A DNA stretch of 27,216 nt from a virus. Its lineage: Duplodnaviria; Caudoviricetes. This document shows, one piece after another, positions 8,737 to 27,048 of this stretch; the stretch's first letter is position 1, and every line of letters starts with the position of its first letter. The stretch lies in IMG/VR virus record IMGVR_UViG_3300037484_001943, positions 1 through 27,216 of that record. The stretch is one strand, 5' to 3'. The translations under genes and the position numbers were made by a program. The notes below the pieces were generated by a model, which was given only the letters and a program-made list of their open reading frames with translations, searched no databases and was not told the DNA's origin.

Positions 8737-8773
8737 GGGGTTTACTCCGAAAGAAGAGACGGGTGGGATGGGA

Positions 8774-11700
8774 CTAGAGGATGGCCGTGCCGCGCCGCAG
8801 TTCCCGCCGGACGCCCGCGGCAATGGTTCGCGCGGTTTGACGGGCGGACTGGCCGCCTTGGACACTGACGTGGATGTCGCCGACGTTCGTGACCGGACCA
8901 CCCTCTTGGCGGTAGACCGGCCGAACGCCGGCGTTGATCGCTACAAGCTGTGAGAAGAATCTTCGGGCCGACCGGGCGTTGACCACGAACTCACCGGGCG
9001 AGAGCATGGCGGGAACCGTGTCGGTCCCTTGCGGAAGGAAACCGCCCCCAGAAAGATACCGGGCGACTTGCACCAGGCCGCCAGCCGACAGCTTTCGGAC
9101 CAACCCGCCCTTGGCCGAGGTCAGGGTCGCAGCGGTCGGGATGCTTGGCACGTTGATTTGACCGCTCGCCCTGGCCATCCGCTCCAGCGCATCGGCCGCG
9201 GCCAGACTCGATTCGGCCAGGGATCGGGCCGGGCCGATCGCGCTGGTCAGGTTGGATTGAACCTGGCCGGTCGAGGCGGCGGCCCGTTTGCTCTCCTCTT
9301 CGACCTGGTAAAGGAACTGCTCGACCTGGCGGAGTTGCTCTTCACCACCGCCCTCGGTGAACGGGTTGCCGCGGAGCTTTTCGCGAACCTCCAGGCTCTC
9401 TTGGAGAATTTTGAGGTTCCGGCCCAGGGCGTCATACTCGGCGCCAACGATGACCCCCTTGTTCGTCTCAAAAAAAGCCCGGGCGCGATTGAACAGGTCG
9501 GCGAACTTTTCGCGGGTCAGGTCGCTGCTGCTGTTGAGCCGGACCATTTCTTCGGTCAACAGTGTCAAGCCCTTCTGGGTGTCACTCAACGCCTTGGTTC
9601 GCTCCGGGCTGTAGAGCCACCCGAGGAAGTCGGTTTCCGTAGACCCGACCGGATCGAGCGGCTCACTCACATTGCCGCGAATCCGCGAGAAATTCTGCCG
9701 CAGTTGCTCTTTAGCGACCCGTGCTTCGGCCCGCTGCCGGAGCAGTTCATTGCGCCTGTCGAACTGTTTTTGGACCGCCTCGCCGATCCGGCCGACGTCG
9801 CCGGCGAATTTTTCGCCGCTGATCGCTTCCAGATCGGGGAGGAACCGGAGCTTCACTTCGAGGTCGCGGGTCGACTGCTCGATCTGGGCATTCAGTCCGG
9901 CCAGGGCCTCCGGCGCGGCCCGGAGCGTTGTGATCTGCGTGGAATCGAGTTGGCGGGACAGGTTGCGACTGAGACTGGTCAGACTGATGATCTGCCCGAC
10001 GTCGAGACTCTCGCTGGAAAGGGCGATCCGCCGGAACTCGCGAAACGCCTCCTGGTAGTTTTTGAGCCGCTTTGCCCGCTCGGCCGCGGGAAGTTCCCTG
10101 TCGCCCTCGAACAGGCTGGCTGATTCCTGGAGCCGCACGGATAGAACCTTGAGCCGATCGAGGTTCTGCTTCTCCCGCTGCGCGGCGCGCTGTGCGTCTT
10201 GGGCTCGCCGCTGTTGGCTTTGCCGTAGTTGTTCCTCGGCGACAAGCTGCCGTTGGAGGACACCGCGAACCGCCTCGGCTGCCTTGGATTCTAGCTGTCG
10301 GTTCTTTGTCCGGTCGGCGATGGCCTCGGCCTGCTTGGCGAAAGCCGCCGCCCGGTCGAACTGGGCCAGGGCGTCGCTGGTCTCCTCCGTGGTGGTGGCA
10401 CGGGCCAACAACTCGGCGGCATGCTCGGCCACCTTCTCCGCACGCTGGGTGTATCGCTCAAACTGCCGGGTGTCGCCGAGTCGCTTGTTGTTCCGCTCGA
10501 AGGCGTCGTCGGAAAGCCGATCCCGGACCGAGATACCGCGGCGCTGCGACTCGGTGACGGCCGCGATGGCGTCCTCTTCCATCTGCTGGTAGCGGCGAAC
10601 CCGGTCTTCTTGGACGCGGATGATCGCCTCGGCCGTGCTCTTGGTGTCGCGCACCAGTGTCTCGTTCGCCTCGCGGGCGGCGTCCACGTTCTGGAAGTGG
10701 AGCTTCCGCTCTTCGGCGATCTGCCGCTCGACAATCTGCTGGATCTTTTTGGACGACTCTTCGACCGCCTTGACCCGATTCTCCTCGTCGGCGCGGAATT
10801 TTCCCAAAACTTCCCGAGACGCCTCGGTGCGGATCTTGTCGTACTGCTGGCGCTCTTCGGCGATCCAGTTGCCGATCGCCTCGCCCGCCGAATGGGCAAC
10901 GCCGGCCAAGGCGAGCCCAGCCGAAAAACCGCCGATGGCCTTGTTGGCAAGCGTCGCATCCTTCGCCAGGGTCCGGGCTCTCAGGCTCGCGTAGGCCGCC
11001 TTGGCAGCAAACGCAGTCAAGGCGAGCGCCCCCGCACCCAAGACGGGCACCAGGGCCTTGCCGGTGCCGATCAGTGTGTCCACCCCGCCGACGACGCCAA
11101 AAAACTCCCGGGTCGTCCGGACCAGGGCCGCACCGAGTTCGACGGTAAAGAAGTTCTTCAGCTTGTTGAGGTCTTTTGTGACTTTTTCGACATCGGTCTC
11201 CGTGATTGCCCGAAACTGGTCGTTGAGTTCCGTGAGATCCGTCTTCTCCAGTTCCGCCAGGCTCCGCTGAAACACATCGGCCCCCGTCCCGGTCAGCCGA
11301 AGCACCGCGTTGAGGCCTCGGACCCGCGGGAAGAGCCTGGCGATGGATGTGGTCGAGCCGTCGGTGGTCGAGATAACCGCCTTCATGGCGCCGACGAATC
11401 CCAAGGCGGCCACGGCCTGCTCACCCGACTCGTAGCCGAGCTGCCGCAGGGCTTTCTTCATCTCGGTGGTCGGTTTCACTAGCGCGGTCATCGCGCCGCG
11501 GATCTGCGTGGCGGCCTCGGCCGTCTTCACGCCGCCGATCGTCACCGCCGCATATGATGCCTGCAACTCGTCGAGACTGATGCCAAGCTGTGAGGCCATC
11601 GGCGCGGTCCGCCCAAAACTGACGGCCAACTCGCTCGCCCGGGTCCGGCCCAGTTCGATCGTCTTGAAGAACTTGGCGGCCACGTCGTCCACCTCGGAGG

Positions 11701-12649
11701 TGTCCTTGCCGAAGGCGTTGAGCGTACCGGTAAGCAGATTCACCGAATCCTCGGTGCTCGCCACCGCAACTTTCGAGAACTTCAGCGACGAGGTCAACAC
11801 GTCGACCTGGTTGGCCGTTCCCTGGATCTGGTTCGAGATGACCTGATAGAGGCCCTCGCTTACGTCGCCCAACGGCTGGTTGAACTCGTCCGACAGGCCG
11901 CGAACCGTGGCGGCCAACTGGTTGAGGTTCTTGATCGGCGAGATGGTGCGGATCTCGGCGATCTGCCGTTGAAAGTCGATCGAGTCATTGTAGGCGTCGC
12001 CCAGGGCGTTGCGGACCATGCTCAGCGCGCGGACGATCAATTGGGTGGTCACAACCCGAGCGAGCGTCTCTCAACTCACCGTCAGGGACTTGGCGGACCT
12101 GTTGCCCGTCTCACCGAGCTTGCCGTAGGATTTCTCGACCCGCTGGAGACCATCGGCGATCTTGTTTTCCGCGCCGGTGAAGCTCTGGCCGAGGTTCTTT
12201 TGGATGCGGCGGACGTCGTCCAACGATTTTCCCGAGCGACTGGCGTATTCGGCGACCTTGGTGGCCGCGCTCTCGAAGGCCCGCTTGTGTTCGGTTCGGG
12301 CCACCGTCGGTATCTCGCCGAATTTCGCCTTCACACTCGCCAGATGCGCCAACACGGCATCGGCTTCGGAGCGGACCGCCGAGGTTGTGCTTGCGCCGGT
12401 TGCAGCCGGACCAGCGGTCCCGCGAGCCCGGTTGACGCGATCCAGACTGGCGAAGGCACGGTCGGCTTCGCTCTTGATCCGATTCAGTGCCCCGACGGTC
12501 TTGCCGGCCTGCTTGTTGAAGCCCTCCAAACCCTTGCCGGCCCCGGCCAGCGACTTCTCGAACTTCCCCAGCACGCCGTCCAGTTCGCGCAGCGTGTTTA
12601 GGGCCTGCGAGGCATCGAAGCCGAGTTCTTGCCGGATTTCTTCAGGCAC
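8774..12649 (-). pseudogene. Tape measure protein (copy L) interrupted by an in-frame TGA at 12071-12073
   Basis: ORFs 12071-12661 and 8774-12052 share a frame. The text reads 'LTVS*ETLARVVTTQ' against 'FVVTWGTISRVVMTQ' in the paralog. Contains a TP901-type TMP core and the C-terminal 'GTDTVPAMLSPGEFVVNA' motif. Likely start is GTG 12649 (VPEEIRQELGF, matching MADEIVNKLGF). Confidence 0.8.
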
Positions 12650-12700
12650 AACACACCTCATCCCGTGGATCGATGTAGGCGTACACGTAGAAACCCGACA

Positions 12701-13207
12701 TCACGACACCTTGTACGTCTTGACCTTGAGCGATTTCCACGGAGACGGAAGACGTACCTTTCGGGCGTACTGCCGAAAAGCTTCAGCCCCGGCCTGCTGG
12801 AAGTGATACGGACCGGGCTGCTTCAGGCGATAGAAGACATTGGGATCAGTGTCCGGTGTGTTGAACTCATTGTGGATCAGCCAGCGGAGCGTGGTTTCGT
12901 ACTTGAACGTGTACGTGCCTTTGGCACGGTCGATCTCCAAGCCACCGTCGCCGGCACGCCGGCCCTCGCTGCGTCGGTCCGGGGCAACCCCGGCGGTCCC
13001 GGCCGTGAGCGAGAATCCCACGGCCCGGGCCAGGTGATAGAACGTCGAGACCGACGCCCCGCTCCACTCGGGGATCAACGCGACAACCGTGGCGTCTAAC
13101 CACTCGTGCGCCGCCTCGATGATCGCCTGGCTGAACTCCTCATGCAGAGTTGCCCGGTAGCCGGTCAGGTCGATGCGCGGTGCTTTGAGCGTTCCTTTGA
13201 ATTTCAT
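12701..13207 (-). CDS. HK97-gp10-like neck/tail completion protein (copy L)
   Basis: 168 aa, paralog of 22074-22574. 'IPEWSGASVSTF' resembles the P-V-x-T/S-G-x-L/S-R motif of gp10-like proteins. Confidence 0.5.
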   Translation of the reverse strand: MKFKGTLKAPRIDLTGYRATLHEEFSQAIIEAAHEWLDATVVALIPEWSGASVSTFYHLARAVGFSLTAGTAGVAPDRRSEGRRAGDGGLEIDRAKGTYTFKYETTLRWLIHNEFNTPDTDPNVFYRLKQPGPYHFQQAGAEAFRQYARKVRLPSPWKSLKVKTYKVS

Positions 13208-13211
13208 ATGG

Positions 13212-13472
13212 TCAGCAGCCCTCGCCTACGGCGCCCCTGGGCATCCGTGCCCCTGCCAGGTGAGCCTCCCGCTCGGTGGCGTCGTGATCGCGGACTTGAT
13301 CGTAGGCCAGGATCAACGCCTGGGTGTGGACGCCGCAATCGTCCCAGTTGGGCTTCACTCCCGGGGGCCGGACACCGAGTCGCTCGCAGGCTCGCCAGAC
13401 GGCGTATTCTGCGGTTCGGTACTTGGGCCAGAGGATGCGTCGCTGACCGGCTGCTGACCACGTGGAAAAACC
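13212..13472 (-). CDS. -1 frameshift extension of the tail assembly chaperone (gpGT-like, copy L)
   Basis: The -1 frame after GGTTTTT (13472-13466) encodes GFSTWS...RTAEYAVWRACERLGVRPPGVKPNWDDCGV, which is conserved in copy R. It ends 4 nt before the next start codon. Confidence 0.7.
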   Translation of the reverse strand, partial: GFSTWSAAGQRRILWPKYRTAEYAVWRACERLGVRPPGVKPNWDDCGVHTQALILAYDQVRDHDATEREAHLAGARMPRGAVGEGC

Positions 13473-13903
13473 TGCCGAGCCCTTTCGAGCTTGGCTTCGT
13501 CCAGACAGTTGGCCCCCCAGACAAGCCCCACGATGCGGTTGATCTCGACTTGCGAGAAGCCCGCGCCTCGAAGATCGTTCGTGTAGTTGGCCCACGTCTT
13601 GGGGTTGTCCGGATCAACGGTGTCCCACTCGATCTCGGACGGTTCGAGCGACTTGACGACCATGTAGGCCACGCGGCGGCGGCCGTGGGCGAGCATGGCA
13701 CTTCGCCAATTGACGTCCTCTTCGTTGGGCTCCTTGCCGGTCTTGGTCAGACGAACGGGCGGCTTGGGCTCGGGACACAGCTTGTCGAACTCGTCCATGT
13801 CGGCCAGGCCACGGGCGCGAAAGACGATCTGCTCTTCGCCGCGCGGCAGGACGAGGATTTCTTCGGCCGGCAAGGTGCCGGGGTCGATTCCACCGATTCT
13901 CAT
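13355..13903 (-). CDS. Tail assembly chaperone (gpG-like, copy L)
   Basis: 182 aa, directly after the tail tube gene and a paralog of 21368-21895; has a slippery site near its 3' end. Confidence 0.7.
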   Translation of the reverse strand: MRIGGIDPGTLPAEEILVLPRGEEQIVFRARGLADMDEFDKLCPEPKPPVRLTKTGKEPNEEDVNWRSAMLAHGRRRVAYMVVKSLEPSEIEWDTVDPDNPKTWANYTNDLRGAGFSQVEINRIVGLVWGANCLDEAKLERARQVFPRGQQPVSDASSGPSTEPQNTPSGEPASDSVSGPRE

Positions 13904-13939
13904 TCGATTACTCCGATCGTTAGATAGTTAAAGTTTATG

Positions 13940-14087
13940 CACCACGGAGGCACGGAGGACACGGAGGAAGGAAGGAAGAATGCAGGGAGTGTCAAAGACA
14001 GGAAAGCGGAAAGCACTACGTGGCCGATATGCACCAATCACTCTCCAACAAGAATCTTCTCTCCGTGTCCTCCGTGCCTCCGTGGTG
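13940..14087. repeat. Palindromic REP/MITE-like element with perfect 27-bp inverted arms
   Basis: CACCACGGAGGCACGGAGGACACGGAG (13940-13966) and its exact reverse complement (14061-14087) flank a 94-bp spacer. Each arm contains three CACGGAG units. Confidence 0.85.
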
Positions 14088-14102
14088 ACTTTCTTAGCGT
14101 TG

Positions 14103-14858
14103 CTACTGACTGACGCGGCTGACGGTCGGCTCGACGGCATTGCACCGTCCGCTGACCGAGACGGTCGCCTCGCCAAGGTCGAATTCCTTCGAGTCGGCGC
14201 GGAAGTCAGGGAAGATCGAGATTTCCATGTCGGCACCGCCGCAGGGCGGGATGTGCTCGACTTCAATGTCCACGGCGTAGGGCTCGCACGGATCGGCCGA
14301 GGAACTGACCCACTCGGCGGCCCCGCCACGGCCCTTGATGGCGTCCATCGGCGTGATGACTTCGCCCGTACCGGTGGTGACGAACTCGTAGACGAAGTCG
14401 AGGTTCACGTCCATCGGCACCTGGTTGCCTTCGCGGACGGTGTCCAACTGGCCACGGTCCAACTCGTACTCGTACTCCGAGTTCTCGGTGTAGGTGAAGT
14501 TGCCGTCGCCGACTTTCACGTCGATCTGCTGGGGCAGGAACGCGATCACCGCATCATCGGCCGGGATACCGTCGGCGGTGGCCAGGGCCGGCGCGAATTG
14601 GATGTTCGTGGTCGTAGCACTGCCGTCGGCGGGCGTGCGGCCGGTCACAGTGTAGGTCACGTCGGTCGCGCCGACGACCGTGAATCGGGCCCCGATCGGA
14701 ATCACGTCAGTCCCCAGCTTGCCGTTGACCACCACGGTGTCGAGGTCGAAATCCGTGTCGCCGTCGGCCGGCGGGGTGACCGGTTCGTTGACGGCGCCCG
14801 TGCCACTGAAGCCGTCTTTCACGCGAATCGCGGCGTGACGAAGTTCTATCCTGGCCAT
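14103..14858 (-). CDS. Major tail (tube) protein (copy L)
   Basis: 251 aa, acidic and beta-rich, upstream of the chaperone and TMP genes. Paralog of 20446-21240 (MARIELR...KDG; ADPCEPYAV.IEVEH.PPCG; FPDFR). Confidence 0.7.
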   Translation of the reverse strand: MARIELRHAAIRVKDGFSGTGAVNEPVTPPADGDTDFDLDTVVVNGKLGTDVIPIGARFTVVGATDVTYTVTGRTPADGSATTTNIQFAPALATADGIPADDAVIAFLPQQIDVKVGDGNFTYTENSEYEYELDRGQLDTVREGNQVPMDVNLDFVYEFVTTGTGEVITPMDAIKGRGGAAEWVSSSADPCEPYAVDIEVEHIPPCGGADMEISIFPDFRADSKEFDLGEATVSVSGRCNAVEPTVSRVSQ

Positions 14859-14861
14859 GAG

Positions 14862-15365
14862 TCAATCTCCGTTTGTCGAGAGGAAGAGGTGATACCGGGC
14901 GTCAACCGCGCTCTGGCGGAGCCGATCGTCCCGGCTGATCTGTCCGAAGTGAATCACGCGGATCGCGTCCCGCTTGCCGGAGCGGAGCGTGAGGCAGCCT
15001 AGCTAGGTTTCATCGTCATCCGGCCCGTCACCCCACTTCAGCACGGGGATCGGACCGCCGGCCGCCTGGAGGAACACGCCGGCCTGCTCGACGATGTCGT
15101 AGGCGTTCTTGGTCTGGCCGCCCATCATGCTCGTCAAGAGCAGATTCACGTCCACATCGAAGCGGAAGTATTTGCGGCTGAGTTCCGTTACGGCCGGGCC
15201 GTTGATGCGAAATTCGACGTGGTCATTGGCCCGCATCTTCTCGGCTTCCCGTTCGTCGATCCCTTCGATCAGGATGGGCAGGCCGATCCCGTCGGCGGCC
15301 TGCTTGAAGTAGTCGGCGGCCGAGGCGAATATCCATCGCGGCCAGTGGGCGTTCGGGATGCTCAT
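14862..15365 (-). pseudogene. Tail terminator-like protein (copy L) with an in-frame TAG at 15003-15005
   Basis: After 'DDDET*' the same frame continues LGCLTLRSGKRDAIRVIHFGQISRDDRLRQSAVDARYHL to TGA 14862-14864. This matches the paralog's VGCLSPVQGRHDAIRVMHFGQVDPTNRIKQSMVDARYRM. Confidence 0.75.
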
Positions 15366-15862
15366 TGCCGGTAGGCTCCCGCCGCGAGACTCAACAGGCT
15401 ATCGGCGGTAAGCAGGTGGACTTGCTCCGCAACGCGGCCCATCAGTTCCTTGCCGACGATGATCCACGCCGCGCCGAACTCGAACTCCCAGATGGCCTTG
15501 ATCTCGTAGCGGCGCCGGTTGTAGACGAGCCAGTCGTCATTGGTGAACTCAAAGCCATCAGGCAGGTCGCGGGCGTCGATGATGAATTTTCGTAAGCCAC
15601 TGTCAAAACTGCCGCCGTAAACGAACGCCTTATTGGCCGAAATCTGCGAGATGCTCTGGATCACCTCGCGGCTGATCTTGACCGGCAGGATGACCGCCCG
15701 CCGGACGACGAAAACGTCCTTGTCGATCGTCTTCCGCCCGGTTCGCACGTTGGTCTGGGCATCGCCCAGACGATAGACGCTCACCGTGCCCCCGTACTGC
15801 CGTTTGAGCGCGTAGAGGGTCTGCCGGATCATGCGATTGAGCGTGCGGTCGGCCGGATACAT
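15362..15862 (-). CDS. Head-closure / head-tail joining-like protein (copy L)
   Basis: 166 aa, paralog of 19416-19928 (LYALKRQYGG; RRAV.LPV..SREV.QSIS.ISANK; DWL.Y..R.Y.I). ATGA overlap with the next gene. Function is inferred from position and the 'D.L.Y.GRRY.I' tail. Confidence 0.55.
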   Translation of the reverse strand: MYPADRTLNRMIRQTLYALKRQYGGTVSVYRLGDAQTNVRTGRKTIDKDVFVVRRAVILPVKISREVIQSISQISANKAFVYGGSFDSGLRKFIIDARDLPDGFEFTNDDWLVYNRRRYEIKAIWEFEFGAAWIIVGKELMGRVAEQVHLLTADSLLSLAAGAYRQ

Positions 15863-15880: not shown

Positions 15881-15949
15881 CTACCTGTCCAAAGCCCTTT
15901 CCAGCCGCTGCATGACCAGCGTATTCTGTGCGATCACGGTCGAGCACTT
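15881..15949 (-). pseudogene. 3' remnant of a small gene truncated by the RIT element (copy L)
   Basis: Reads KCSTVIAQNTLVMQRLERALDR* outward from the RIT end; 16 of 22 residues are identical to the remnant at the other end. Confidence 0.65.
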
Positions 15950-15978
15950 TTCTTCTGTGGCGCAGTCAGTTATGTGGC
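15950..15978 (+). repeat. RIT terminal inverted repeat (left)
   Basis: TTCTTCTGTGGCGCAGTCAGTTATGTGGC is the reverse complement of 19295-19323 except for one base. Confidence 0.9.
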
Positions 15979-16043
15979 GTCCAGCACGAGTTGCTCGCGA
16001 TTTCATGGATCGGTGCTGTGCTGGACGCCACATAATTTTCGCC

Positions 16044-17054
16044 CTACAGGCTTCGCAGGAACTCCATGAGTCCGGGATTCTTGCGCCACGGTTTCTTCGG
16101 CTTGCCGCCCTTGATCTCGCACTTCACAAGTGCTTTGGCCTTCATTTCCAGATCGACCTCCGCATACACGTTGGTCGTGTTGAGGGATACATGACCCAGC
16201 CACGCTCGAATCGTGTTGATGTCCACGCCGGCTCGAAGCAGGTGGGTCGCGGTCGTGTGGCGAATCGTGCGGGGACTTCCACGTTTCTTCGCCAGGGACG
16301 GCAGTTTCGCTGCCGTGCGAGCAGCGTGGCGTTCGACCAGCGCATGGACCCCGAATCGCGTCAGCGGTTGCCCACGGCGGTTGAGGAAGACATGCTCCGA
16401 TGCGGCTCGACCGCCGACGAGAGGCCGCAATTCCTCAACGGTCTTCGGCCACAGCGGACAGCGGCGGCGCTTGTTTCCCTTGCCGCGCAGGACAACGGCC
16501 GAGCCGTCGCGGCGAGGTGCGGCACCGAATTCGAGATCGCCGATCCGCGCCTGGGCCACCTCGTCGGCCCTCGCGCCGGTGTTGTACAGGAACAGGAGGA
16601 CCGCGTAGTCTCGACGACCTTGGGCAGTGCGTTGATTGGGCGCTTTCAGCAACGCATCCAGTTCGTCCTTCTCCAAGTATCCGATCAGTGGGCGCGCGAC
16701 TTTCTTCGACGCGATGGTCTGAATTTGACGAGACCATTCCAGGTGCTCCGGGTTGCACCGACCGATGAATCGCGCCAAGGAATGGATCGCCGCGAGGCGC
16801 TGATTTCGCGTGGCGATCCCGCAGCCGCGAGTTTTCTCCAAATCTTGAAGAAAAGCGCGGGTGCGCGCCGGCGAAACGTCCTCCACCCGAAGCCCTTCGA
16901 TCCGTCGATGGGCGGCGCGAGCTATGAACGGCAGAAATTGCCGCAACGCATCCCGGTAGCTCACCTGCGTGTTGCGGGCGAGGTTCCGCTCCGCAACGAG
17001 GTGCTCCAACAAGAACCGGCGGACCCAGGGGCCAAGCAAATCGGTGTTACGCAT
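16044..17054 (-). CDS. Tyrosine recombinase, third gene of the RIT (RitC-like)
   Basis: 336 aa with LYNTGARADEV, GKGNK, R-T-I-R-H (His of HxxR replaced by Arg), WLGH and TNVYA motifs. Confidence 0.9.
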   Translation of the reverse strand: MRNTDLLGPWVRRFLLEHLVAERNLARNTQVSYRDALRQFLPFIARAAHRRIEGLRVEDVSPARTRAFLQDLEKTRGCGIATRNQRLAAIHSLARFIGRCNPEHLEWSRQIQTIASKKVARPLIGYLEKDELDALLKAPNQRTAQGRRDYAVLLFLYNTGARADEVAQARIGDLEFGAAPRRDGSAVVLRGKGNKRRRCPLWPKTVEELRPLVGGRAASEHVFLNRRGQPLTRFGVHALVERHAARTAAKLPSLAKKRGSPRTIRHTTATHLLRAGVDINTIRAWLGHVSLNTTNVYAEVDLEMKAKALVKCEIKGGKPKKPWRKNPGLMEFLRSL

Positions 17055-17982
17055 GGCGTCCCTCCTTCCAGGCGTAGCGCTCGAAGCGCTGGCTGGCTTC
17101 GCGGAGAAGCTCGGGCGTCATGCTCAAGTACACCTGCGTGTCCTGCAAATGGGCGTGACCCAGATAGACCGACAGTTGGTGCAGGAGTCGCTGTACGTCG
17201 GCACCCTGCTTGTACCAGGAGGTGAGACGGTGAACAGCGAACGTGTGGCGCAGGTCGTGAATTCGCGGCTGCTGGCGCACGTCAGTTCGGCGGATGCCCG
17301 TGAGGTCGCGCAGAAGTCGGAAGTTCCAATGGAGCATTTTCGTGCGGATGGGGCCACCCTTTACGGTTGCGAAAAAGGGGGCGTCAGCGGGTCGTCGCTT
17401 CGGCCGCGTGCGGTCGTACTCAGCCAAGACCTGCCTCAGTTGCGGTCCCACGGGAACCAATCGCGTCTTGCCGAACTTCGTGTTCCGAATCGTCAGGATG
17501 GACTTGTTCAAATCCACGTCGGCGCGAGTCAGGTGTATTGCCTCGCTCAGGCGCAAGCCGGCCCCGTAGTACAGCAGTATCATCGTGCGGATCGTCGCTG
17601 GTTCAAAGACACGATTTTTACGCGAAAGAAGCTTAATTGCTTGGAGAATGCGACGAAGTTCTTCCTGCGTGTAGATGTAGGGAACGAATGCCGGCGGCTG
17701 CTTCGGCATGACGGTCGGAAGAGGGGCTGTGGTGATGTAGCCACGGCTCACGGCGTATTGGAGGAAGCCTCGCAGGCGGCTCAACTTGCTGAACCAGGTT
17801 TCGGTTACGGGCCTGGCTTTGCCGAGGAAAGCGTCCACGTGCTTAACGCGAACGCCGCCAATGCTGGCTCGTGCGCCACGGGCACGGCCGAAGGCCCGAA
17901 GAACCTTCGCATCATCGACGAATGGCGTTCCAAGCGACTGACGCAAGGAAATGTACTGTTCGATCAGCCGTTGGAGGTTCAT
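17047..17982 (-). CDS. Tyrosine recombinase, second gene of the RIT (RitB-like)
   Basis: 311 aa with GAGLRLSEA, TKFGK, HDLRH, YLGH and TQVYL motifs; 8-bp overlap with the third gene. Confidence 0.92.
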   Translation of the reverse strand: MNLQRLIEQYISLRQSLGTPFVDDAKVLRAFGRARGARASIGGVRVKHVDAFLGKARPVTETWFSKLSRLRGFLQYAVSRGYITTAPLPTVMPKQPPAFVPYIYTQEELRRILQAIKLLSRKNRVFEPATIRTMILLYYGAGLRLSEAIHLTRADVDLNKSILTIRNTKFGKTRLVPVGPQLRQVLAEYDRTRPKRRPADAPFFATVKGGPIRTKMLHWNFRLLRDLTGIRRTDVRQQPRIHDLRHTFAVHRLTSWYKQGADVQRLLHQLSVYLGHAHLQDTQVYLSMTPELLREASQRFERYAWKEGRHA

Positions 17983-19178
17983 AGGACACCTCCCATGTCG
18001 AGATCGGCCACTTCACGGAGGCCGGCAAGATCGACTTTGGCATAAATCCGCGTGCTGTTGGGGTCGGTGTGCCCCAGTTGATCGCCAATCTCCTTCAGCG
18101 ATAGACCAGCGGCCAGCAATTGCGTGGCGCAGGCATGACGCAAGGCATGAGGACCGTGGTGTGGAAGCGACACGTCTATGGATCGCAACCGCTCGCCGAC
18201 CACCTCCCAAAGCGAACTTGGGTTCAGCGGGCGGAGAGGAGCCCTCAGTGACAAGAACAATTCCCGATGCGCGGATTGCGGTCGCACCTCTTGCAGGTAA
18301 CGCAGGATGGCATCGCCGACGGATCGCGTCAGCGGATAGGTTCGGACCCGCCCCGACTTGGAAGATACGACGCGGAGCACTTCATGCTCCCAGTCGAAAT
18401 CATCCAGCCGCAGGCCGTTCACCTCCCCACGCCGGAGGCCGTAGATGGCCAGAAGCATCAGGATTGGCCGGTTACGGATGTCGCGCGGCTCGTCCCCTTC
18501 GGTCGTGGCGAGCAGCCGCCGCACGTCGTCCCACGATGGCCCGAGCGGCACCGATGCTTGCGAGAAGACTCGCGGAGCGCGAATGGACCCCGCCAACCCT
18601 TTGCGGCACCAGCCGCGTGCTTCCGCAAACCGAAAGAAAGCCCGCAGATCGGTGGCCCAGCTTTGAATCGTCCGCCGCGAATAACCTCCTGGTTCGAGCA
18701 TCTTCTGAAACGCCGTGTCGATCCGATGAGGAGTGATCGCGTGCAAAGAACCACCTTGGACACGCAGTTGCTTGACGAACTGCCTGACCTGCGAGCAACG
18801 GGTACAAATGGTCGCGGGCGACAGTTCCGCTTCATGCTCCATGTAATCAGCGAACGCTTTGATCTTCTTCGCCCAGGGAGTCAACGGGGCGGGACGCTGT
18901 TGCAGACGCCCCATGAATTGGAGCCATCGGACGGCAACTCGATAGAGGTCATGCCGCTTGGCAGCCTTGCGTTTGACTTCGTTGAGAGTCAGGGCCTTTC
19001 GGCTGGCCAATCCACGCATCTTTGCAATCGCGAGCAGGCCCCGCGCCCACCCCCGCAAGCCCTTCCGGGTGTAGCCCTGGCCTGCGAGATGTGTCAGGAA
19101 GGCAAGGCGCTCTTCCAGCATTGGACCTTTGCGGTAGCGCGCCACAACACCGGGAACCTCGAAAATCTGATCGAACAT
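17979..19178 (-). CDS. Tyrosine recombinase, first gene of the RIT (RitA-like)
   Basis: ATG 19178 after a GGAGGT RBS (MFDQIF). Motifs YGLRRGEV, SSKSG, HALRH, LGH and TRIYAK are present; ATGA overlap with the second gene. Confidence 0.92.
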   Translation of the reverse strand: MFDQIFEVPGVVARYRKGPMLEERLAFLTHLAGQGYTRKGLRGWARGLLAIAKMRGLASRKALTLNEVKRKAAKRHDLYRVAVRWLQFMGRLQQRPAPLTPWAKKIKAFADYMEHEAELSPATICTRCSQVRQFVKQLRVQGGSLHAITPHRIDTAFQKMLEPGGYSRRTIQSWATDLRAFFRFAEARGWCRKGLAGSIRAPRVFSQASVPLGPSWDDVRRLLATTEGDEPRDIRNRPILMLLAIYGLRRGEVNGLRLDDFDWEHEVLRVVSSKSGRVRTYPLTRSVGDAILRYLQEVRPQSAHRELFLSLRAPLRPLNPSSLWEVVGERLRSIDVSLPHHGPHALRHACATQLLAAGLSLKEIGDQLGHTDPNSTRIYAKVDLAGLREVADLDMGGVL

Positions 19179-19294
19179 AGTCGCACCTCCGGGGAGAAAG
19201 GGGAAACGGGACCTTCTCCCCATAGCGTAACGCCAAAATTATGTGGCGCAGAAAACGGGCTAAACGCTGCAATTCGGCCGAAGGAACGCGCTAG

Positions 19295-19323
19295 GCCACA
19301 TAACTGGCTGCGCCACAGAAGAA
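19295..19323 (-). repeat. RIT terminal inverted repeat (right)
   Basis: GCCACATAACTGGCTGCGCCACAGAAGAA pairs with 15950-15978. Confidence 0.9.
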
Positions 19324-19398
19324 CGCTGTGCGGACGTAATCGCCCAGAACACTCTGATGATGGAACGACTTGAGAAGGCCCTGGATCGGGACCATTGA
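19324..19398 (+). pseudogene. 3' remnant of a small gene truncated by the RIT element (copy R)
   Basis: Reads RCADVIAQNTLMMERLEKALDRDH* outward from the RIT end; paralog of 15881-15949. Confidence 0.65.
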
Positions 19399-19415: not shown

Positions 19416-19928
19416 ATGACGTATCCCGCCAGTTACGGCTTGAATCAGCAGATTCGGCGCGTGCTGTACGCGCTCAAGCGGCAGTACGGCGGCGAGGTCG
19501 TCGTCTACCAGAACGGCACGGTGACTACGGATACGAAGACCGGCGAAACAAGCCGGACGAAGACGGCAACCCGGATTCGTCGGGCCGTCGTCCTGCCGGT
19601 GACGGTCAGCCGCGAAGTGAAGCAGTCGATCTCGCTGATCTCCGCGAACAAGCAGATGGTTACGGGCGGCGGTTTCGAGTCGGGCAAGCGGCTGTTCATC
19701 ATCGAGCGCCGCGACTGCCCGAACCTCGTGCTTCACAAGAGCGATTGGCTGGCCTACCAAGGCCGCAAATACGCCATCGAGAACTACGAAGAGTACGAGT
19801 TCGATGCGGCGTACCTCATCACCGGCAGAGAAATGCCGGGCGAGTCCCCGGGCGTGGCGGGGTCGATCGTCGAGCTTGCGGCTTGCGACACGCTCGCGTT
19901 GGATTCACAGGCCGGAGGGGCGATGTAG
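19416..19928 (+). CDS. Head-closure / head-tail joining-like protein (copy R)
   Basis: ATG 19416 (MTYPASYGL, matching MYPADRTL); paralog of 15362-15862. Confidence 0.55.
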   Translation: MTYPASYGLNQQIRRVLYALKRQYGGEVVVYQNGTVTTDTKTGETSRTKTATRIRRAVVLPVTVSREVKQSISLISANKQMVTGGGFESGKRLFIIERRDCPNLVLHKSDWLAYQGRKYAIENYEEYEFDAAYLITGREMPGESPGVAGSIVELAACDTLALDSQAGGAM

Positions 19929-19930
19929 CC

Positions 19931-20428
19931 ATGCCAGCCAATCCACACTGGGCACGCTGGGTGTTCGCATCCGTAGCCACCTACCTCAAGGACGTGGCGA
20001 AGGAGACCGGACTGCCCGTTCTGATCGAAGGCTTGGACGACCGGACCACGGAGTTCATGGAGGCCACGGATCGGTGCGAGGTCCGCATCACGGGGCCGTT
20101 TACCAAGGAGGTCAGCCACAACTACTTCCAGATCGAAGTCGTGGTGAACGTGCTGTTCTTGAGCCGCTACGAAGAGCAGAAGAACCGATACGCCATCATC
20201 CAGAGGACGGGCGTGTTCCAAGAGGCAATGGACGGAGCCATAGCCGTCTACCAGTACGGAAATGAACCGGGAGACGACGATGGCGCGCTGGTCGGCTGCC
20301 TCTCGCCAGTGCAAGGCCGCCACGACGCCATCCGCGTCATGCACTTTGGACAGGTCGATCCGACCAACCGGATCAAACAGTCGATGGTAGACGCTCGCTA
20401 CCGGATGGAAATATCCACCAGTCAGTAA
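19931..20428 (+). CDS. Tail terminator-like protein (copy R), 165 aa
   Basis: ATG 19931 (MPANPHWARWVFAS, matching MSIPNAHWPRWIFAS); sits immediately upstream of the tail tube gene. Confidence 0.55.
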   Translation: MPANPHWARWVFASVATYLKDVAKETGLPVLIEGLDDRTTEFMEATDRCEVRITGPFTKEVSHNYFQIEVVVNVLFLSRYEEQKNRYAIIQRTGVFQEAMDGAIAVYQYGNEPGDDDGALVGCLSPVQGRHDAIRVMHFGQVDPTNRIKQSMVDARYRMEISTSQ

Positions 20429-20445
20429 ACAGGAGATAGCCGAAC

Positions 20446-21240
20446 ATGGCACGCATCGAACTTCGTGACTGCACCGTCCGCATCAAGGACGGACTCGGCG
20501 CGCATCCCACCCTCTATCCTTGCACGGCGCAGGGGAACAAGACGCTCACACCCGACAAGACGGCCGTGGCCGAGAGCGACACCGGCGGCAAGGTGTCCAG
20601 CGTGAGCATTCCAACCGCGGTCGGCGGATACACGGAGAAGATCCCGATTGGGGCACGCTTCACCATTGCCGGTGAGACGGCCGCCACCACGGTCCACGTC
20701 GTCACGGCCAGGACCCAGGACGGGACCGACCCGAACAAGACGACGGACATCGTGTTTTCGCCCGCCCTCGGGGCCGGCACCTACGGGACGGACGCCGCCA
20801 TCACGTTCCTGCCGCAGCAACTCGAAGTGAAGATTGGCGAGGGGAACATCACCTACACCGAACACAACGAGTACAACTACCTGCTCGACCGGGACAACCT
20901 GGACACCGTGAAGGAAGGCAAGGAAGTCCCGATGGATGTCAAGTGGGACAGCGTGTACGAGCACATCACCACGGGCACCAGCGAGAACATCAGCCCGATG
21001 GATGCGCTGAAGGGCATCGGGGCGGCCTCCGAGTGGATCACCTACGCCGCGGACCCCTGCGAACCCTACGCGGTGGCCATCGAAGTCGAGCACGTTCCGC
21101 CCTGCGGCACGAGCCTGGGCGAAACCACGCTCTTCCCCGACTTCCGCTCGGAACAGCGCGAGGTGAACTTCAAGGAGGCCACGATCTCCGTGACGGGCAA
21201 GTGCAATGCCACGGAACCCATCGTGATCCGCGCGAGTTAA
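20446..21240 (+). CDS. Major tail (tube) protein (copy R)
   Basis: 264 aa with an AGGAG RBS, followed by a terminator-like hairpin; paralog of 14103-14858. Confidence 0.7.
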   Translation: MARIELRDCTVRIKDGLGAHPTLYPCTAQGNKTLTPDKTAVAESDTGGKVSSVSIPTAVGGYTEKIPIGARFTIAGETAATTVHVVTARTQDGTDPNKTTDIVFSPALGAGTYGTDAAITFLPQQLEVKIGEGNITYTEHNEYNYLLDRDNLDTVKEGKEVPMDVKWDSVYEHITTGTSENISPMDALKGIGAASEWITYAADPCEPYAVAIEVEHVPPCGTSLGETTLFPDFRSEQREVNFKEATISVTGKCNATEPIVIRAS

Positions 21241-21306
21241 GACGACTCCCCGGCCCTCTTTTTCAAGAAGGCCGGTTGGGCTGGTCTCTCTGTCAAGACC
21301 AGTCAA

Positions 21307-21354
21307 GCGGTGCCGGCTGTGGGTGCCGGCACCGCCTCTTTCTCTTTCCTTTTC
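21307..21354 (+). terminator. Rho-independent terminator-like hairpin after the tail tube gene
   Basis: GCGGTGCCGGC-TGTGGGT-GCCGGCACCGC forms a perfect 11-bp stem followed by CTCTTTCTCTTTCCTTTTC. Confidence 0.65.
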
Positions 21355-21367
21355 GCGAGGGAACAGC

Positions 21368-21895
21368 ATGAAGATTGCCGGTATCGACCCCAAATCGCTC
21401 TCCAACGAGGTGCTCCTCGTCCTGCCCCGCGGCGACAAAGAGATCGTCTTCCGCGCCAAGGGCCTGCCCGACATGAGGGAGTTCGAGGCCCTGTGCCCCT
21501 ACCCCAAGCCGCCGGGCAAGTTCACCAAGGAGGGCTGGATTCCCAACGTCACCGACCCCACCTACCAGCAAGTGCTCGGGGAATGGGCGAAGAAGCGACT
21601 GGGCTACATGGTCATTCACTCGTTGGACCCCAGCGAGATCGAGTGGGACACCGTGAACAAGGCCGACCTCCGCACTTGGACCAAGTGGGAGGACGACCTG
21701 AAAAGCGGCGGCCTGACCCAGGTGGAGTGCAACCGCGTGCTGGCCCTGGCGCTGGAGGCCAACGCCCTGGACGAGGCCAAGCTGCAAAAGGCCCGCGAGG
21801 TTTTTCTACGTGGTCGGGAGCCGATGCCCGAAGAGTTCTCTTCGCTCCGCAGCGAACGGCCGAGTTCGCCGTCTGGCGGGCCTGCGAACGATTAG
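21368..21895 (+). CDS. Tail assembly chaperone (gpG-like, copy R)
   Basis: ATG 21368 after GAGGGA (MKIAGIDP, matching MRIGGIDP); slippery GGTTTTT at 21799-21805. Confidence 0.7.
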   Translation: MKIAGIDPKSLSNEVLLVLPRGDKEIVFRAKGLPDMREFEALCPYPKPPGKFTKEGWIPNVTDPTYQQVLGEWAKKRLGYMVIHSLDPSEIEWDTVNKADLRTWTKWEDDLKSGGLTQVECNRVLALALEANALDEAKLQKAREVFLRGREPMPEEFSSLRSERPSSPSGGPAND

Positions 21896-22071
21896 GCATC
21901 CGGCCGCCGGGCGTCAAACACTCCTGGGATGACTGTGGCGTCGAGACTCAGGCTTTGATCGTCGCCTTCGACCATCTGCGCGGTCACGACGAAGCGGAGC
22001 GGGAGGCTCGACTGGCGGGGGCACGGATGCCTTTGGCGGCGTCCCCACCTTCCCCGGAGCAAGGTTCCTGA
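21799..22071 (+). CDS. -1 frameshift extension of the tail assembly chaperone (gpGT-like, copy R)
   Basis: The -1 frame encodes GFSTWS...RTAEFAVWRACERLGIRPPGVKHSWDDCGV and ends 2 nt before the next ATG. Confidence 0.7.
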   Translation, partial: GFSTWSGADARRVLFAPQRTAEFAVWRACERLGIRPPGVKHSWDDCGVETQALIVAFDHLRGHDEAEREARLAGARMPLAASPPSPEQGS

Positions 22072-22073
22072 CC

Positions 22074-22574
22074 ATGAAGTTCACGGCCCAATTCTCTGCT
22101 CCGCGCATCGACGTAGTGGCCTATCGCAGCGCCCTGGACAAGCACATGGCCCATGTGATTGCCCAGGGCTTGGTGGTCTGGCTAGAGGCGATCCTGGCCG
22201 AAATTCCGGTGTGGAGCGGGGCTTCACGGGCCACCTTCACGAAATTGGCAAGCCACATCTCCTATTCCATCCCCATTGCTCCGGTCGCCGTGGATCGGAT
22301 CGGGATGGGGCAGGCGTCCAGCGACGGCGGAATGGTCACGGACAAGCAGACCGGGGAGTACAGCTTCACCTACAGCACGACGCTGCCGTGGCTGATCTGG
22401 AACGAGTACCACAACGCCAACGTCGAGCCGGACCCAAGCCTCTTCTATCGCGTGATTAAGGAAGGCCCCTACAACTTCCAGGCCGTGGGTGCCAGGGCCT
22501 TTCTGCGGTTTGCAGACAACGTGGACCTTCTGCCCGTCAAGCCTCATCTGCGTGCGACGCGAGTCAAGTCCTAG
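22074..22574 (+). CDS. HK97-gp10-like neck/tail completion protein (copy R)
   Basis: 166 aa with 'IPVWSGASRATF'; paralog of 12701-13207. Confidence 0.5.
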   Translation: MKFTAQFSAPRIDVVAYRSALDKHMAHVIAQGLVVWLEAILAEIPVWSGASRATFTKLASHISYSIPIAPVAVDRIGMGQASSDGGMVTDKQTGEYSFTYSTTLPWLIWNEYHNANVEPDPSLFYRVIKEGPYNFQAVGARAFLRFADNVDLLPVKPHLRATRVKS

Positions 22575-22585
22575 CAAGGTGCCTC

Positions 22586-25500
22586 ATGGCTGACGAGATC
22601 GTCAATAAACTCGGCTTCAACGTCGAGGAGGCCCTGGCGGCGCTCCAGCGATTGGACCTTGCGCTGCAAACCTCGGGCGGAGCCTTCCAGACGTTCGGCG
22701 GGACGCTGAACGCCTGGAACAGCCAGGCGGCGGGTGCGCTGAACACGATGAAGCAGATGGCCTCGGCTGCGCAGAATCTCGCCTCGTCCATGTCGAAGAT
22801 GGGCAGCGGGCCGGCGATGCCGGCGCAGCCTGCTGCCACGTCCTCGTTCTGGCTGCCGTCCGGCATGGAAGCCGAGGCCAGGCGATTGAACGATGCCCTG
22901 CGCAGCGTCGGCACGTCGGCCACCGAAATGGGCGGCAAACTCAAGGACGGCGGCACGAAGGGCAAGGAAGCTCTCGACGAGGCGGACGACAGCGCCAAGA
23001 AGTTCGTCGTCACCTGGGGCACGATTTCGCGCGTGGTGATGACGCAGTTTGTCGTCCGGGCCATGAGCCAAATTCGTGACGCCCTGCGTGAAGCCGTCGC
23101 GGAGTCCATCGAGTTTCAGCGGCGGGTCGCCGAAGTCCAGACAGTCGCGCCAAAGATCGGCGGGAGTTTCGCCGCTTTGACGAGCGAGGCCGCAGAGTTC
23201 GCCAAAGCGTTCAACATCCCGTTGGCGCAGGCCACCGAGGGCCTGTACGAGACCATCTCGGACCAGTTCTCGGGAATGTCGCAGCGTGCTAGCGTGATGT
23301 CGGCGGCGATGAAACTGGCGAAGGTTGGCGTCATGGAATTTCAGGACGCCGTGACGCTGATTACCGGCACGCTCAATGCCTTCGGCATGACGAGCGAGCA
23401 AGCGGACTCGGTGGCCGCGAAGTATTTCACCACGATCAACTTGGGGCACGTCCGCGGCAAGGAACTGGCGGACACGATGGGGCAGGTCATTCCCATTGCG
23501 TCCCAGTTGGGCGTCAGCCTGGATGAACTGAACGCCGCAATGATTGCCATGACCATCGGCGGCATGGACGCGCACAAAACGGTGACGGGCCTGCGCGGGG
23601 CCATGACCGCTTTCCTGAAGCCTTCGGAAGACATGAAGAAGGTCATCCGGGAAATGGGCTTCTCTTCGGCCGAGCAGGTGGTCCAAGCCAAGGGCTTTCA
23701 GGGTGCTCTGGAAGCGGTCGCCGATGCCTCGGACAACATGGCCTCCGGGATCGCCAAGTCGTTCCGTAATGTCCGCGCCCTGACGGCCGAGTTGCGTCTG
23801 ACCAACGAAGGGGCTGTGAAGGTCGAAGAGGCCATGAAGGCAATGGCGACTTCGACGCCTGACGCCCTCGACAAAATCTACAAGCAGTTCACCAGCACCG
23901 ATTCAGAGAAGCTGACCCGCGAAATCAACCGCCTCAAGATCAATCTGACGCAGGACTTCGGCAGCGGCCTGACGGGTGTGCTGGCGACAATGATGCAGCT
24001 CATGGGCGGGGCCGACAGGCTCTCGGCCGCGATCCAGGCCCTCGCTTTCGCCGCCGTCCCGGCCGCTGCCGCGATGCTGGGCCTGGCCGCGGCAGCCGCC
24101 ATGACCCATCTCGCACTGGGTCCAATCGGCTGGGCCTTGCTGGGCATCACGGCCGCGCTGTCGCTCTTTGCCGGCGGCATGACCTACACGACGGCGCAGT
24201 CGATCAATGAGACCCGCCGGCTGTCGAACGAGCAGCGTCAGGCCACTTTGGAGTATCTGAAGAACAAGGAGGAGGAGCTACGCGCACTGCGCGAGACGGA
24301 AGAGAAGAAGACGGCCGAAGAGAACCGCGCCTGGGAGAACCGCGCCGCGGCGATCCGGCGAAACTACTTCAAGGCCCTGGACGGACTCCGCGACAAGAAC
24401 AAGGAGATCATCGAGAGCGACCGGCAGGCGATGCAGTCGATCATCGCTGCCCAGGAGCGGGTCGTCTCCGCCTATCGCAATGCCGCCAACGCCAGTCTCC
24501 GCGTCGTGCAGGACTCCCAGAACCGGCGTGTCACCCTTGAGGCCCAGGTTTCCGACAAGCTCTTCAAGGACCGGCTCGACAAGCTCTACGCACAACAGGA
24601 CGTGGAACAACGGGCGCAGGCTACCCTGCGTCGGAGCTGGGAATTGGAGAGCCAGGGCCTCACGGCGCTAGCCAACGCGCAGACGCAGGACGACGTGCAT
24701 CGCGCCGCAGCGGTTCTCCAACGGGCGGAGGCTTATCTCCAAGAGGGCACCGCCCTTGCCAAGACGACGAGCAACACTTGGCTCCAGTATCAGGCGGAAC
24801 GCAGCGTCCTGGACAACATGGAAGCCCAAGTCAAGGCTGAAAAGCAGTTGGAGGCGTTGCAGGCTGCGCGGGCGCAAAAGCTGGCGGACGAGGCCGCCAA
24901 GGAGCAGCAGCGGCTCGACCAGATGAAGGCCCTGATGAAGGCCATCCTCACGGACCTGCAAGCCTTCGACAAGCAGGGGGCAAAATCGCCCCAGGCTTTG
25001 GCGGAGCAGCAGGGCCAGCTCACCGAGAACCTCAACAAGTTCCGCGATCTGTGGCTCGGCGGCAAGAAGGTTGAAGTCGCCGACCTGTTGGGTTTTGACC
25101 AGCTTCAGCGCCGAGTGACGATGGCTCTGGAGGGCGGCGTCTCGCAGGCGGAGGTGAAGGAACTCTACTCGGCCCCGGAGACGTTTGCCAGGTTCCGCGA
25201 GGACATTGAAAAGGGCATCGGCCCGGTTCGCGTGATGATCGACATGGGAAGGATCGGCGGCGGCCCGCAGGTGTGGGAAGCGACGAAAGGGATGACCGCC
25301 GAGGAAACGATGTCGCACTTCTCCCAGGAGTTGCAGCGATCCACCCAGATCATCAACAGCTTTGGTGCGGCCCGTGATGCCTTAAAGATGGCGAATGCCG
25401 GGGTGCAGCAGAGCCAAAGGGAGGTCCAGAGCGCGCTAGATCGCTGGGTGGACGTGGGTTTCGTCAAAGACGTGCGCGACCTGGGCGGGATATGGGAGAC

Positions 25501-26329
25501 GTTCACGGGCCATGTGGCGAACACCCCGCTGGTCAAACAGGCCCGCGAGGAACTTGTGCGGGCAACCCTCAAGTTCACCGCCCCCGATGCAAAGCCCCTG
25601 ACCGAGGATTTGGACAGACTCCAGGCCGCCTACGATCTCTACCTGGCGGTTCTCAAGCCGAGCGCCAAGAGCAAAGCGGCCCTGGACGAGTTCATGCGGA
25701 AGGCGTCGATGGCAACCGAGGCCGCGAAGCGGGTCGAGTCGCTGGAACAGGGCACGAGGGCTATGGAAGGCAACGCGACGGAGGCCATGAGGAACAAGCC
25801 CGCCTTGGAGAACGCCTTGAAAGCGGCCGAAGAGGCGGCCCGCAAAGCGAAGGAGGGCACGGATGGGGCGCAAGCTAGCGCCGAAGGTGCGTGGAAGGCC
25901 ATCTCCCAGGTCTCTCAGATCAACATGAGCGGGCTGGTCAGCCAGACCCAAGAGGTGGCCGACGCCATGTGGAGCCTGGCCAGCGCCTCCATGATGGTGC
26001 AGTTCCCGACGCCGCAGATGACCGCCTCCCACGGAGGGACGGCGTGGAAGCTCCTGGCCAGCGGCGGCCCGGTGGGCACGGACGTGATCCCCGCGATGCT
26101 CTCACCGGGCGAGGTGGTCATCAACGCCGCTTCGGCGCGGAAGTTCGCTTCACAACTGACCGCCATCAATGCCGGCGTGCAACCGGTCTACCGCAGCGAA
26201 GGCGGCAGCGTCACCAACATCGGTGACATCAACGTGTCTGTAACCGGCGGCGGAACCAGCCGCCAGACGGCTAGGTCCATCGCCGCCGAGTTGCGCAGAG
26301 AACTGCGGCGTGGCACGGCAACCCTGTAA
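22586..26329 (+). CDS. Phage tail tape measure protein (copy R), 1247 aa
   Basis: Ala-rich helical protein with a TP901-type core (TINLGHVRGKELADTMGQVIPIASQLGVSLDEL), a hydrophobic segment and the C-terminal GTDVIPAMLSPGEVVINA motif. Confidence 0.9.
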   Translation: MADEIVNKLGFNVEEALAALQRLDLALQTSGGAFQTFGGTLNAWNSQAAGALNTMKQMASAAQNLASSMSKMGSGPAMPAQPAATSSFWLPSGMEAEARRLNDALRSVGTSATEMGGKLKDGGTKGKEALDEADDSAKKFVVTWGTISRVVMTQFVVRAMSQIRDALREAVAESIEFQRRVAEVQTVAPKIGGSFAALTSEAAEFAKAFNIPLAQATEGLYETISDQFSGMSQRASVMSAAMKLAKVGVMEFQDAVTLITGTLNAFGMTSEQADSVAAKYFTTINLGHVRGKELADTMGQVIPIASQLGVSLDELNAAMIAMTIGGMDAHKTVTGLRGAMTAFLKPSEDMKKVIREMGFSSAEQVVQAKGFQGALEAVADASDNMASGIAKSFRNVRALTAELRLTNEGAVKVEEAMKAMATSTPDALDKIYKQFTSTDSEKLTREINRLKINLTQDFGSGLTGVLATMMQLMGGADRLSAAIQALAFAAVPAAAAMLGLAAAAAMTHLALGPIGWALLGITAALSLFAGGMTYTTAQSINETRRLSNEQRQATLEYLKNKEEELRALRETEEKKTAEENRAWENRAAAIRRNYFKALDGLRDKNKEIIESDRQAMQSIIAAQERVVSAYRNAANASLRVVQDSQNRRVTLEAQVSDKLFKDRLDKLYAQQDVEQRAQATLRRSWELESQGLTALANAQTQDDVHRAAAVLQRAEAYLQEGTALAKTTSNTWLQYQAERSVLDNMEAQVKAEKQLEALQAARAQKLADEAAKEQQRLDQMKALMKAILTDLQAFDKQGAKSPQALAEQQGQLTENLNKFRDLWLGGKKVEVADLLGFDQLQRRVTMALEGGVSQAEVKELYSAPETFARFREDIEKGIGPVRVMIDMGRIGGGPQVWEATKGMTAEETMSHFSQELQRSTQIINSFGAARDALKMANAGVQQSQREVQSALDRWVDVGFVKDVRDLGGIWETFTGHVANTPLVKQAREELVRATLKFTAPDAKPLTEDLDRLQAAYDLYLAVLKPSAKSKAALDEFMRKASMATEAAKRVESLEQGTRAMEGNATEAMRNKPALENALKAAEEAARKAKEGTDGAQASAEGAWKAISQVSQINMSGLVSQTQEVADAMWSLASASMMVQFPTPQMTASHGGTAWKLLASGGPVGTDVIPAMLSPGEVVINAASARKFASQLTAINAGVQPVYRSEGGSVTNIGDINVSVTGGGTSRQTARSIAAELRRELRRGTATL

Positions 26330-26351
26330 CCTTTGATCGAGAGGAACACCC

Positions 26352-26960: not shown

Positions 26961-26975
26961 CGGGACTCCCTCGCC

Positions 26976-27025
26976 AAAGGTCGGGCGGGGTCTGTTACCA
27001 AGAGCCCCGCTCGGCCTTTCTTCTG
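26976..27025 (+). terminator. Terminator-like hairpin
   Basis: AAAGGTCGGGCGGGG (26976-26990) pairs with CCCCGCTCGGCCTTT (27005-27019) using two G-U pairs, and is followed by CTTCT. Confidence 0.55.
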
Positions 27026-27048
27026 TGTAGCCCCGCTGGGAGGTTCTG

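Follow-up and report, generated by a model that had tools for sequence, protein, structure and literature searches.

The virus record IMGVR_UViG_3300037484_001943, analysed over its whole length of 27,216 bp (hereafter the window), carries at its centre a RIT element with a trio of tyrosine recombinase genes, and two phage tail operons point away from it on either side (open reading frames (ORFs), Pfam, and PHROG). Both flanks of the element are 3' halves of the same small gene, one from each of two phage lineages, A and B, as the original prediction had claimed from the bare letters of the DNA. The fusion is very probably a real molecule. Our preferred explanation, the chances of which we put just short of even, is that the window represents a real product formed when an inserted RIT recombined site-specifically with a second target.

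Results

The features of the window are given below (coordinates, strand, description).

22..15862, minus strand: tail operon of phage lineage A (ORF list), reading away from the RIT, with a putative head-closure gene (15362-15862), tail genes, a tape measure gene (8774-12661), and distal tail genes
15881..15952, minus strand: 3' half (EKCST...LDR*) of a small membrane-protein gene, lineage A, starting with the target 6-bp core (15947-15952)
15953..16035, no strand: ritC end, with two 8-bp sites 9 bp apart (15953-15960 and 15970-15977) and an inverted third site (16028-16035)
16044..17054, minus strand: ritC, tyrosine recombinase, 336 aa
17047..17982, minus strand: ritB, tyrosine recombinase, 311 aa
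17979..19223, minus strand: ritA, tyrosine recombinase, 414 aa
19239..19320, no strand: ritA end, with an inner site (19239-19246) and outer sites (19296-19303 and 19313-19320), inverted relative to the ritC end
19321..19398, plus strand: 3' half (ERCAD...DRDH*) of the same small gene, lineage B, starting with the 6-bp core (19321-19326)
19416..27216 (record end), plus strand: tail operon of phage lineage B, reading away from the RIT, with a tape measure gene (Pfam/PHROG)

Reading outward from the element gives KCSTVIAQNTLVMQRLERALDR at the left end and RCADVIAQNTLMMERLEKALDRDH at the right end, both in one frame after the shared repeat. The two remnant C-termini are identical at 16 of 22 residues, and 12 of these 16 identical residues use different codons, which bears out the codon divergence described originally. 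The genes after the remnants are paralogous and begin 18 nt (left) and 17 nt (right) downstream, and here too our measurements agree with the spacing first given. More broadly, the two arms are paralogous and inverted, with 64-73% nt identity in blocks, and both operons are without head genes. The lineage A arm near the junction shows 83-89% nt identity to the intact A-type contigs L001-L008. On the other side, the right arm matches the intact contig L020 at 97.9% nt over 6,605 bp, gap-free, and its 6-bp core (19321-19326) is identical to that of this intact allele.

The three recombinase genes are co-directional and overlap by 4 bp and 8 bp, and Pfam finds PF00589 in RitA, RitB, and RitC, in keeping with the RIT family. 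Both the HxxRH and the catalytic-Tyr motifs are present in RitA and RitB. RitC keeps the RH and Tyr motifs, and Arg replaces the first His of its HxxRH; this Arg occurs in 6 matches (the window and five views of the L029 contig) as against His in 55.

The RIT core (15953-19320) measures 3,368 bp and terminates at ...CCACAGAA (15953 on the left, 19320 on the right), while the remnants start at E (15952 and 19321). The shared repeat had been proposed as the element end and it does end the element, but its last Glu codon, which had been counted with it, does not. This GAA is the codon of the target, because it is GAG in L028 and L067 and because it matches the intact allele L020. The terminal inverted repeat is a 29-bp match with one mismatch, 3 bp of which are target-derived, and the ritC end forms a 66-bp hairpin closed by the inverted third site (z = -7.35), which is present in the window.

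A normal insertion is built differently. The contig L029 carries a core identical to that of the window (3,374/3,374 nt) and 26 bp more, consisting of a palindrome and a spacer. At its ritC end the order is 5' half, 6 bp, 20-bp palindrome (two 8-bp arms and a 4-bp centre), 6 bp, and inverted repeat, and the window is without this palindrome. The whole order of a normal insertion is thus 5' half, 6 bp, 20-bp palindrome, 6 bp, core, 6 bp, and 3' half, and its inner junction (core end, 6 bp, palindrome arm) is built as one would expect of the joint in an excised circle. The same build was recovered at many targets by pattern scans of viral, metagenome, and genome collections. Of 141 contexts in all, 52 could be assigned, and in these the palindrome lies at the ritC end 35 times and at the ritA end 17 times. 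The 6-mers flanking it are identical in 21/51 cases and identical at 5/6 positions in 13/51, a count that is biased because the metagenome scan pattern demanded GA at one 6-mer; these 6-mers vary among the Glu-Arg-type codon pairs of the target family. Both core orientations occur at this phage gene, in insertions of near-identical RITs, with the palindrome at the ritC end in L029, L074, and L084 and at the ritA end in L166, L201, and L211. A related element in a target of the same kind is present in the genomes G802 and G940, and its palindrome is at one end in the first and at the other in the second. From these sequence comparisons we infer that the core can invert and that the inner junction may be an active crossover site.

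Both ends of 14 other elements were inspected by eye, not exhaustively. Ten have one adjacent palindrome, one has a palindrome displaced by an IS91-like insertion, one has two (L212), and two have none (L028 and L390); palindrome scans miss palindrome-less elements. An identical core with four different flanks, together with the intact allele L020 without the element, is comparative evidence for mobility as a unit.

Some further observations concern related elements. An IS91-like element (Y2 transposase and integrase) lies repeatedly between the RIT palindrome and the inverted repeat (L092:4521-7267, L099, L255, and L271), and IS91-like insertions are similarly placed in L167, L185, and L280. 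Related RITs (L154-L294) occupy other conserved motifs, mostly at an acidic-residue codon, which the scan pattern favoured; by eye, we take their targets to resemble ATP-dependent DNA ligases, DNA methylases, and a nuclease-like family. In L369 and L341 a related RIT sits at another site, in the contigs of L038 and L044 that carry the tail gene of this phage family, and a second gene of these phages may thus be targeted.

The target gene was followed in its intact relatives. Searches with the two downstream genes gave 19 and 46 viral loci. Among these 65, the small gene is intact in 55, with an L[LM]PLV-type sequence ahead of the core codons, RIT-interrupted in 2 (L028 and L029), and outside the search pattern in 8. 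A capsid gene with a P22-type coat lies upstream in 58/65 loci, and the intact homologues sit between capsid and tail genes. A check named beforehand asked whether intact homologues already hold the repeat, and HITxCATE occurs in 0 of the 120 proteins listed among 151 homologues. In three of the 120 the 5' half passes straight into the RIT palindrome, and one is frameshifted at the target codon. The repeat thus belongs to the end of an element, and the gene is targeted recurrently. Targeting of a phage gene, also part of the original prediction, is borne out by RITs that occupy the identical codon in L028, L029, L067/L068, L074, L084, L166, L201, and L211. The cut falls at a Glu-Arg/Lys codon pair.

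The frameshifted homologue, P0113, is shifted exactly at the target codon and is without RIT sequence; an excision scar or an error is possible. A single hydrophobic stretch is present in the target protein, which matches no family. It resembles a BhlA/UviB-type holin. As a candidate identity, holin was rejected for want of profile support, as two intact alleles gave no holin family in Pfam or PHROG at E up to 1.

The capsid query found loci in 8/301 genomes of the order to which G002 belongs; the G002 locus L289 is labelled Pirellulales. A single contig of the genome G507 carries three capsid loci, distributed over both strands, with the small gene after each. The head-closure protein query matched 0/401 genomes. 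Given the related capsid loci in this order and the three in G507, the host is likely a planctomycete (Pirellulales) carrying several related prophages.

To place the fusion in assembly graphs, we used four sediment runs from four studies (X1-X4), which hold 81-98% of the words of the region, as contigs rather than reads; X5-X24 (share 0.33 or less) were left out. Graph pieces were placed on the window and on the left junction of L029. The run X1 is possibly the source of the record and, as such, not independent. Between 73% and 90% of each run was covered, the filter drops records, and assemblers can prune weak branches. In X1, the ritC end exits to the 5' half of lineage A with the palindrome (5'A-palindrome, depth 7.2) or to the 3' half (3'A, 6.2), the core has a depth of 10.4, and the ritA end exits to 3'B (6.24) or 3'B' (5.32). 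There are three 3' exits and one 5' exit, so every pairing leaves one 3'-core-3' path. In X2, the ritC end exits to 5'A-palindrome (5.51) or 3'A (5.44), while the ritA end runs unbranched into 3'B (12.5); this single exit forces a 3'-core-3' molecule. X3 has a single contig, 5'A-palindrome-core-3'B (8.72). X4 has 5'A-palindrome and both B exits, with a 3'A piece that ends 9 nt before the junction, and the depths of the 3'A arm (3.5) and the 3'B exit (3.6) match. A palindrome at the ritA end has no record in X1-X4. A second fusion is seen at contig level in L028, where a RIT of 89% nt identity has lineage B 3' halves as both flanks, arms 91% identical to one another, and no palindrome.

A few features of the arms stand apart from the junction. 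The head-closure label comes from a weak PHROG match (E 0.036) of the right-hand paralogue. The lineage A tape measure, identified by Pfam/PHROG, is divided by one stop at 12071-12073 (minus strand); L004, L005, and L006 have Trp at this position, and either decay or an error in the contig would fit. A perfect 27-bp inverted repeat with 94 nt spacing lies at 13940-14087, between the putative tail tube gene and the gene that follows it, and alignments to L002, L003, and L006 break there; it is possibly a small mobile or regulatory element. A promoter scan of 15800-19500 returned 0 sites.

Discussion

In the mechanism that we prefer, the palindrome-side inner site of an inserted RIT would stay active and would flip the core. 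The same site would then attack the corresponding codon of a second prophage, with two products, 3'-core-3', as in the window, and 5'-palindrome-5', which would be lost here. Both tail operons would lose their head genes and the target gene would be broken. If this fusion were resolved through the other site, one phage's head would come to stand on another's tail, as is seen in L029 and X3. In a Pirellulales host with several related prophages, what results is probably either a dead end or an intermediate of shuffling.

Several observations argue for this route. The identical core of L029 keeps the 5' half and the palindrome at its ritC end, whereas that of the window does not. Across X1-X4, the ritC end alternates between the two halves of the A-type gene, both of which best match L002, and the ritA end always leads to a B-type tail. 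This toggling at one end with a constant exit at the other means that capture of a second target needs the fewest unseen junctions. A 650-bp non-autonomous mini-RIT (L390:1501-2149, in G922) has no palindrome and the same 15 bp outside both ends. The palindrome-less fusion of L028, the occurrence of the palindrome at either end, and the three capsid loci of G507 also speak for capture. When 142 palindromes were classed, an element end lay on one side in 100, on neither in 28, and on both in 2, and 12 were too short. Four of the 28 were kept by eye as bare palindromes between matching half-sites with unrelated sequence beyond (L176, L220, L258, and L273); the flanks of L176 are presumably two DNA-ligase-like gene starts. 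Bare palindromes between two left half-sites are the reciprocal type that the mechanism predicts, at other targets. The remaining candidates were rejected, namely L164 (a mirror at a contig end), L167, L185, L255, L271, and L280 (IS91-like insertions adjoining the palindrome), L161, L163, L199, L267, L288, and L293 (degenerate element ends), and the rest of the 28, which are unclear cases.

As a separate observation, L029:2314-5950 and X3 join a lineage A head region via the RIT to a lineage B tail, an arrangement found in none of the 40 intact B-tail loci.

Other results weigh against capture of a second target. The reciprocal junction with 5' halves on both sides, which the original prediction proposed to look for, was not found at this gene as 5'-palindrome-5' in viral contigs or in 56/64 parts of a metagenome collection, and X1-X4 show no branch after the palindrome. 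RIT-free hybrids of head and tail were not seen either, with an A-type capsid in 0/40 intact B-tail loci that have a capsid match. The evidence as a whole consists of short-read contigs, and no piece covers the window from junction to junction. The Arg-for-His substitution in RitC may mean, judging by the motif, that this copy is impaired. Lastly, bare palindromes could arise by excision from a product with two palindromes like that of L212, or could be natural or artefactual long palindromes. The missing reciprocal could itself be a consequence of the event, because either real route, with prophages facing apart on one chromosome, would delete the head regions on a lost circle.

The other real route is possible, though on the whole we doubt it somewhat. 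The same RIT would have inserted separately in prophages A and B, with one core flipped, and homologous recombination by the host across the 3.4-kb cores would have joined 3'A to 3'B, with the reciprocal 5'-palindrome-core-palindrome-5' lost. The molecule would still be real and caused by RIT, and only the last step would not be site-specific. Near-identical RITs do occur in both core orientations at this gene, and a core depth close to the sum of two exits in X1 and X2 indicates that two identical copies coexist. The RitC substitution would be no hindrance, and the A-head/B-tail hybrid of L029 and X3 would be one crossover away. Furthermore, the element of L212 carries palindromes at its two ends, with a methylase-like 5' half beyond each, and so resembles the reciprocal, but L212 is a 3.6-kb contig with flanks of 70 bp and about 360 bp and may be a collapsed repeat. 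Against this route, the junctions that it requires (ritA end-palindrome-5'A, ritC end-palindrome-5'B, and ritA end-3'A) are all missing from X1-X4, and it offers no direct source of bare palindromes or of the palindrome-less L390. Recombination between two copies and capture of a second target by one element were the two routes proposed at the outset; both survive and they are not fully separable.

It is unlikely that the fusion is an assembly chimera, in which the assembler collapsed two normal insertions whose cores face opposite ways and joined their 3' flanks. The core is a repeat that branches at both ends in X1, where the contigs do not fix the pairing of exits, and no piece spans it with both window flanks. 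In addition, 5'A joins 3'B in X3 but 3'B' in L029, the second fusion in L028 is known from its contig, and the coverage and filtering of the runs have been noted above. A chimera would nevertheless need a palindrome and a 5' half at the ritA end at a depth of about 6, for which the four runs hold no record. The unbranched ritA end of X2, the excess of 3' exits in X1, which leaves some 3'-core-3' path in any pairing, and the agreement in depth between the two arms in X4, though the 3'A piece stops 9 nt short, all speak against it. Normal 5'/3' contexts for both copies had been named as the mark of a chimera, and the assembly graphs offer no such contexts for both. That the repeat belongs to the gene, or is an inverted duplication that arose by chance, is scarcely conceivable, for although it is stop-free and in frame with both remnants, the listed homologues are without the motif, most loci have the gene intact, and the same repeat flanks RITs at unrelated targets.

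For comparison with known systems we drew on the accessible text of five papers. RITs are described there as elements of about 3,500 bp with a 28-29-bp repeat and a palindrome, said not to fit the usual recombinase sites (PMC3414803), and have been found to interrupt radC and an IS66 tnpA (PMC2864759). Protected free intermediates were found and the mechanism was called undeduced (PMC5737581). Subgroups of RitA-C have been defined, RitA with two core-binding domains and RitC with an extra C-terminal helix (PMC8138268). SE and Tn554 elements leave 6-bp footprints, in an account that lists RIT movement as untested or vague (PMC10214605).

Within the limits of that text, the element of the window is like other RITs in its overlapping recombinase trio, its length of about 3.4 kb, its terminal inverted repeat of about 28-29 bp (criterion 28-34 bp), and a gene broken by insertion. 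It is unlike those described in that its target is a gene of the phage morphogenesis region, its flanks are two 3' halves from two loci, and its terminal palindrome is gone. With SE and Tn554 elements it shares tyrosine recombinases, specificity for a target, and a spacer of 6 bp that is carried along as a footprint. SEs, as described, have a single joint (attS) and different gene sets, whereas in this RIT a 20-bp palindrome is enclosed by two inverted crossover-like sites, a layout that would allow core flipping and a second capture. Membership in the SE/Tn554-like group was rejected, as the element has three recombinases of 311-414 aa with no accessory gene between its ends rather than one ordinary and one large recombinase with a Srap/TnpC-like gene.

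In the adjacent deletions and inversions caused by insertion sequences, a resident end recombines with a new target and rearranges the flanks, through DDE transposases with loose targets. The rearrangement of flanks is similar here, but the second target of the RIT is the same codon of a paralogous gene. The literature searched, without supplements, holds no report of head-to-head RIT fusions or of phage-gene targeting; Ricker et al. 2013 may describe targets, palindrome, and orientations. The element family is known, and the arrangement is new relative to the papers searched.

The movement of RITs and their need for three recombinases are described as open in the accessible text of PMC5737581, PMC3414803, and PMC10214605. 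The window and its relatives give base-exact sites, namely 8-bp repeats, a 6-bp core in a conserved codon pair, and an invertible 20-bp palindrome, and these make excision, inversion, and second-target capture testable on small plasmids. A bacterial element is aimed at the head/tail gene boundary of a prophage family; it disrupts a gene there and links modules from different lineages. A fusion between two target copies looks programmable and would be of interest to genome engineers.

More generally, and only as a tentative proposal, RITs could be two-site machines that keep a live crossover site after insertion and capture a second copy of the target codon. They could then serve as site-specific hubs at which head and tail modules of Planctomycetes prophages are fused, deleted, and swapped, with the window as a trapped swap intermediate. 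The comparative evidence, drawn from sequence, appears to fix the recombination sites of RITs and points to second-target capture. The ability of an inserted element to take a second target is the likely cause of the fusion, and it would explain how these poorly understood elements rearrange DNA.

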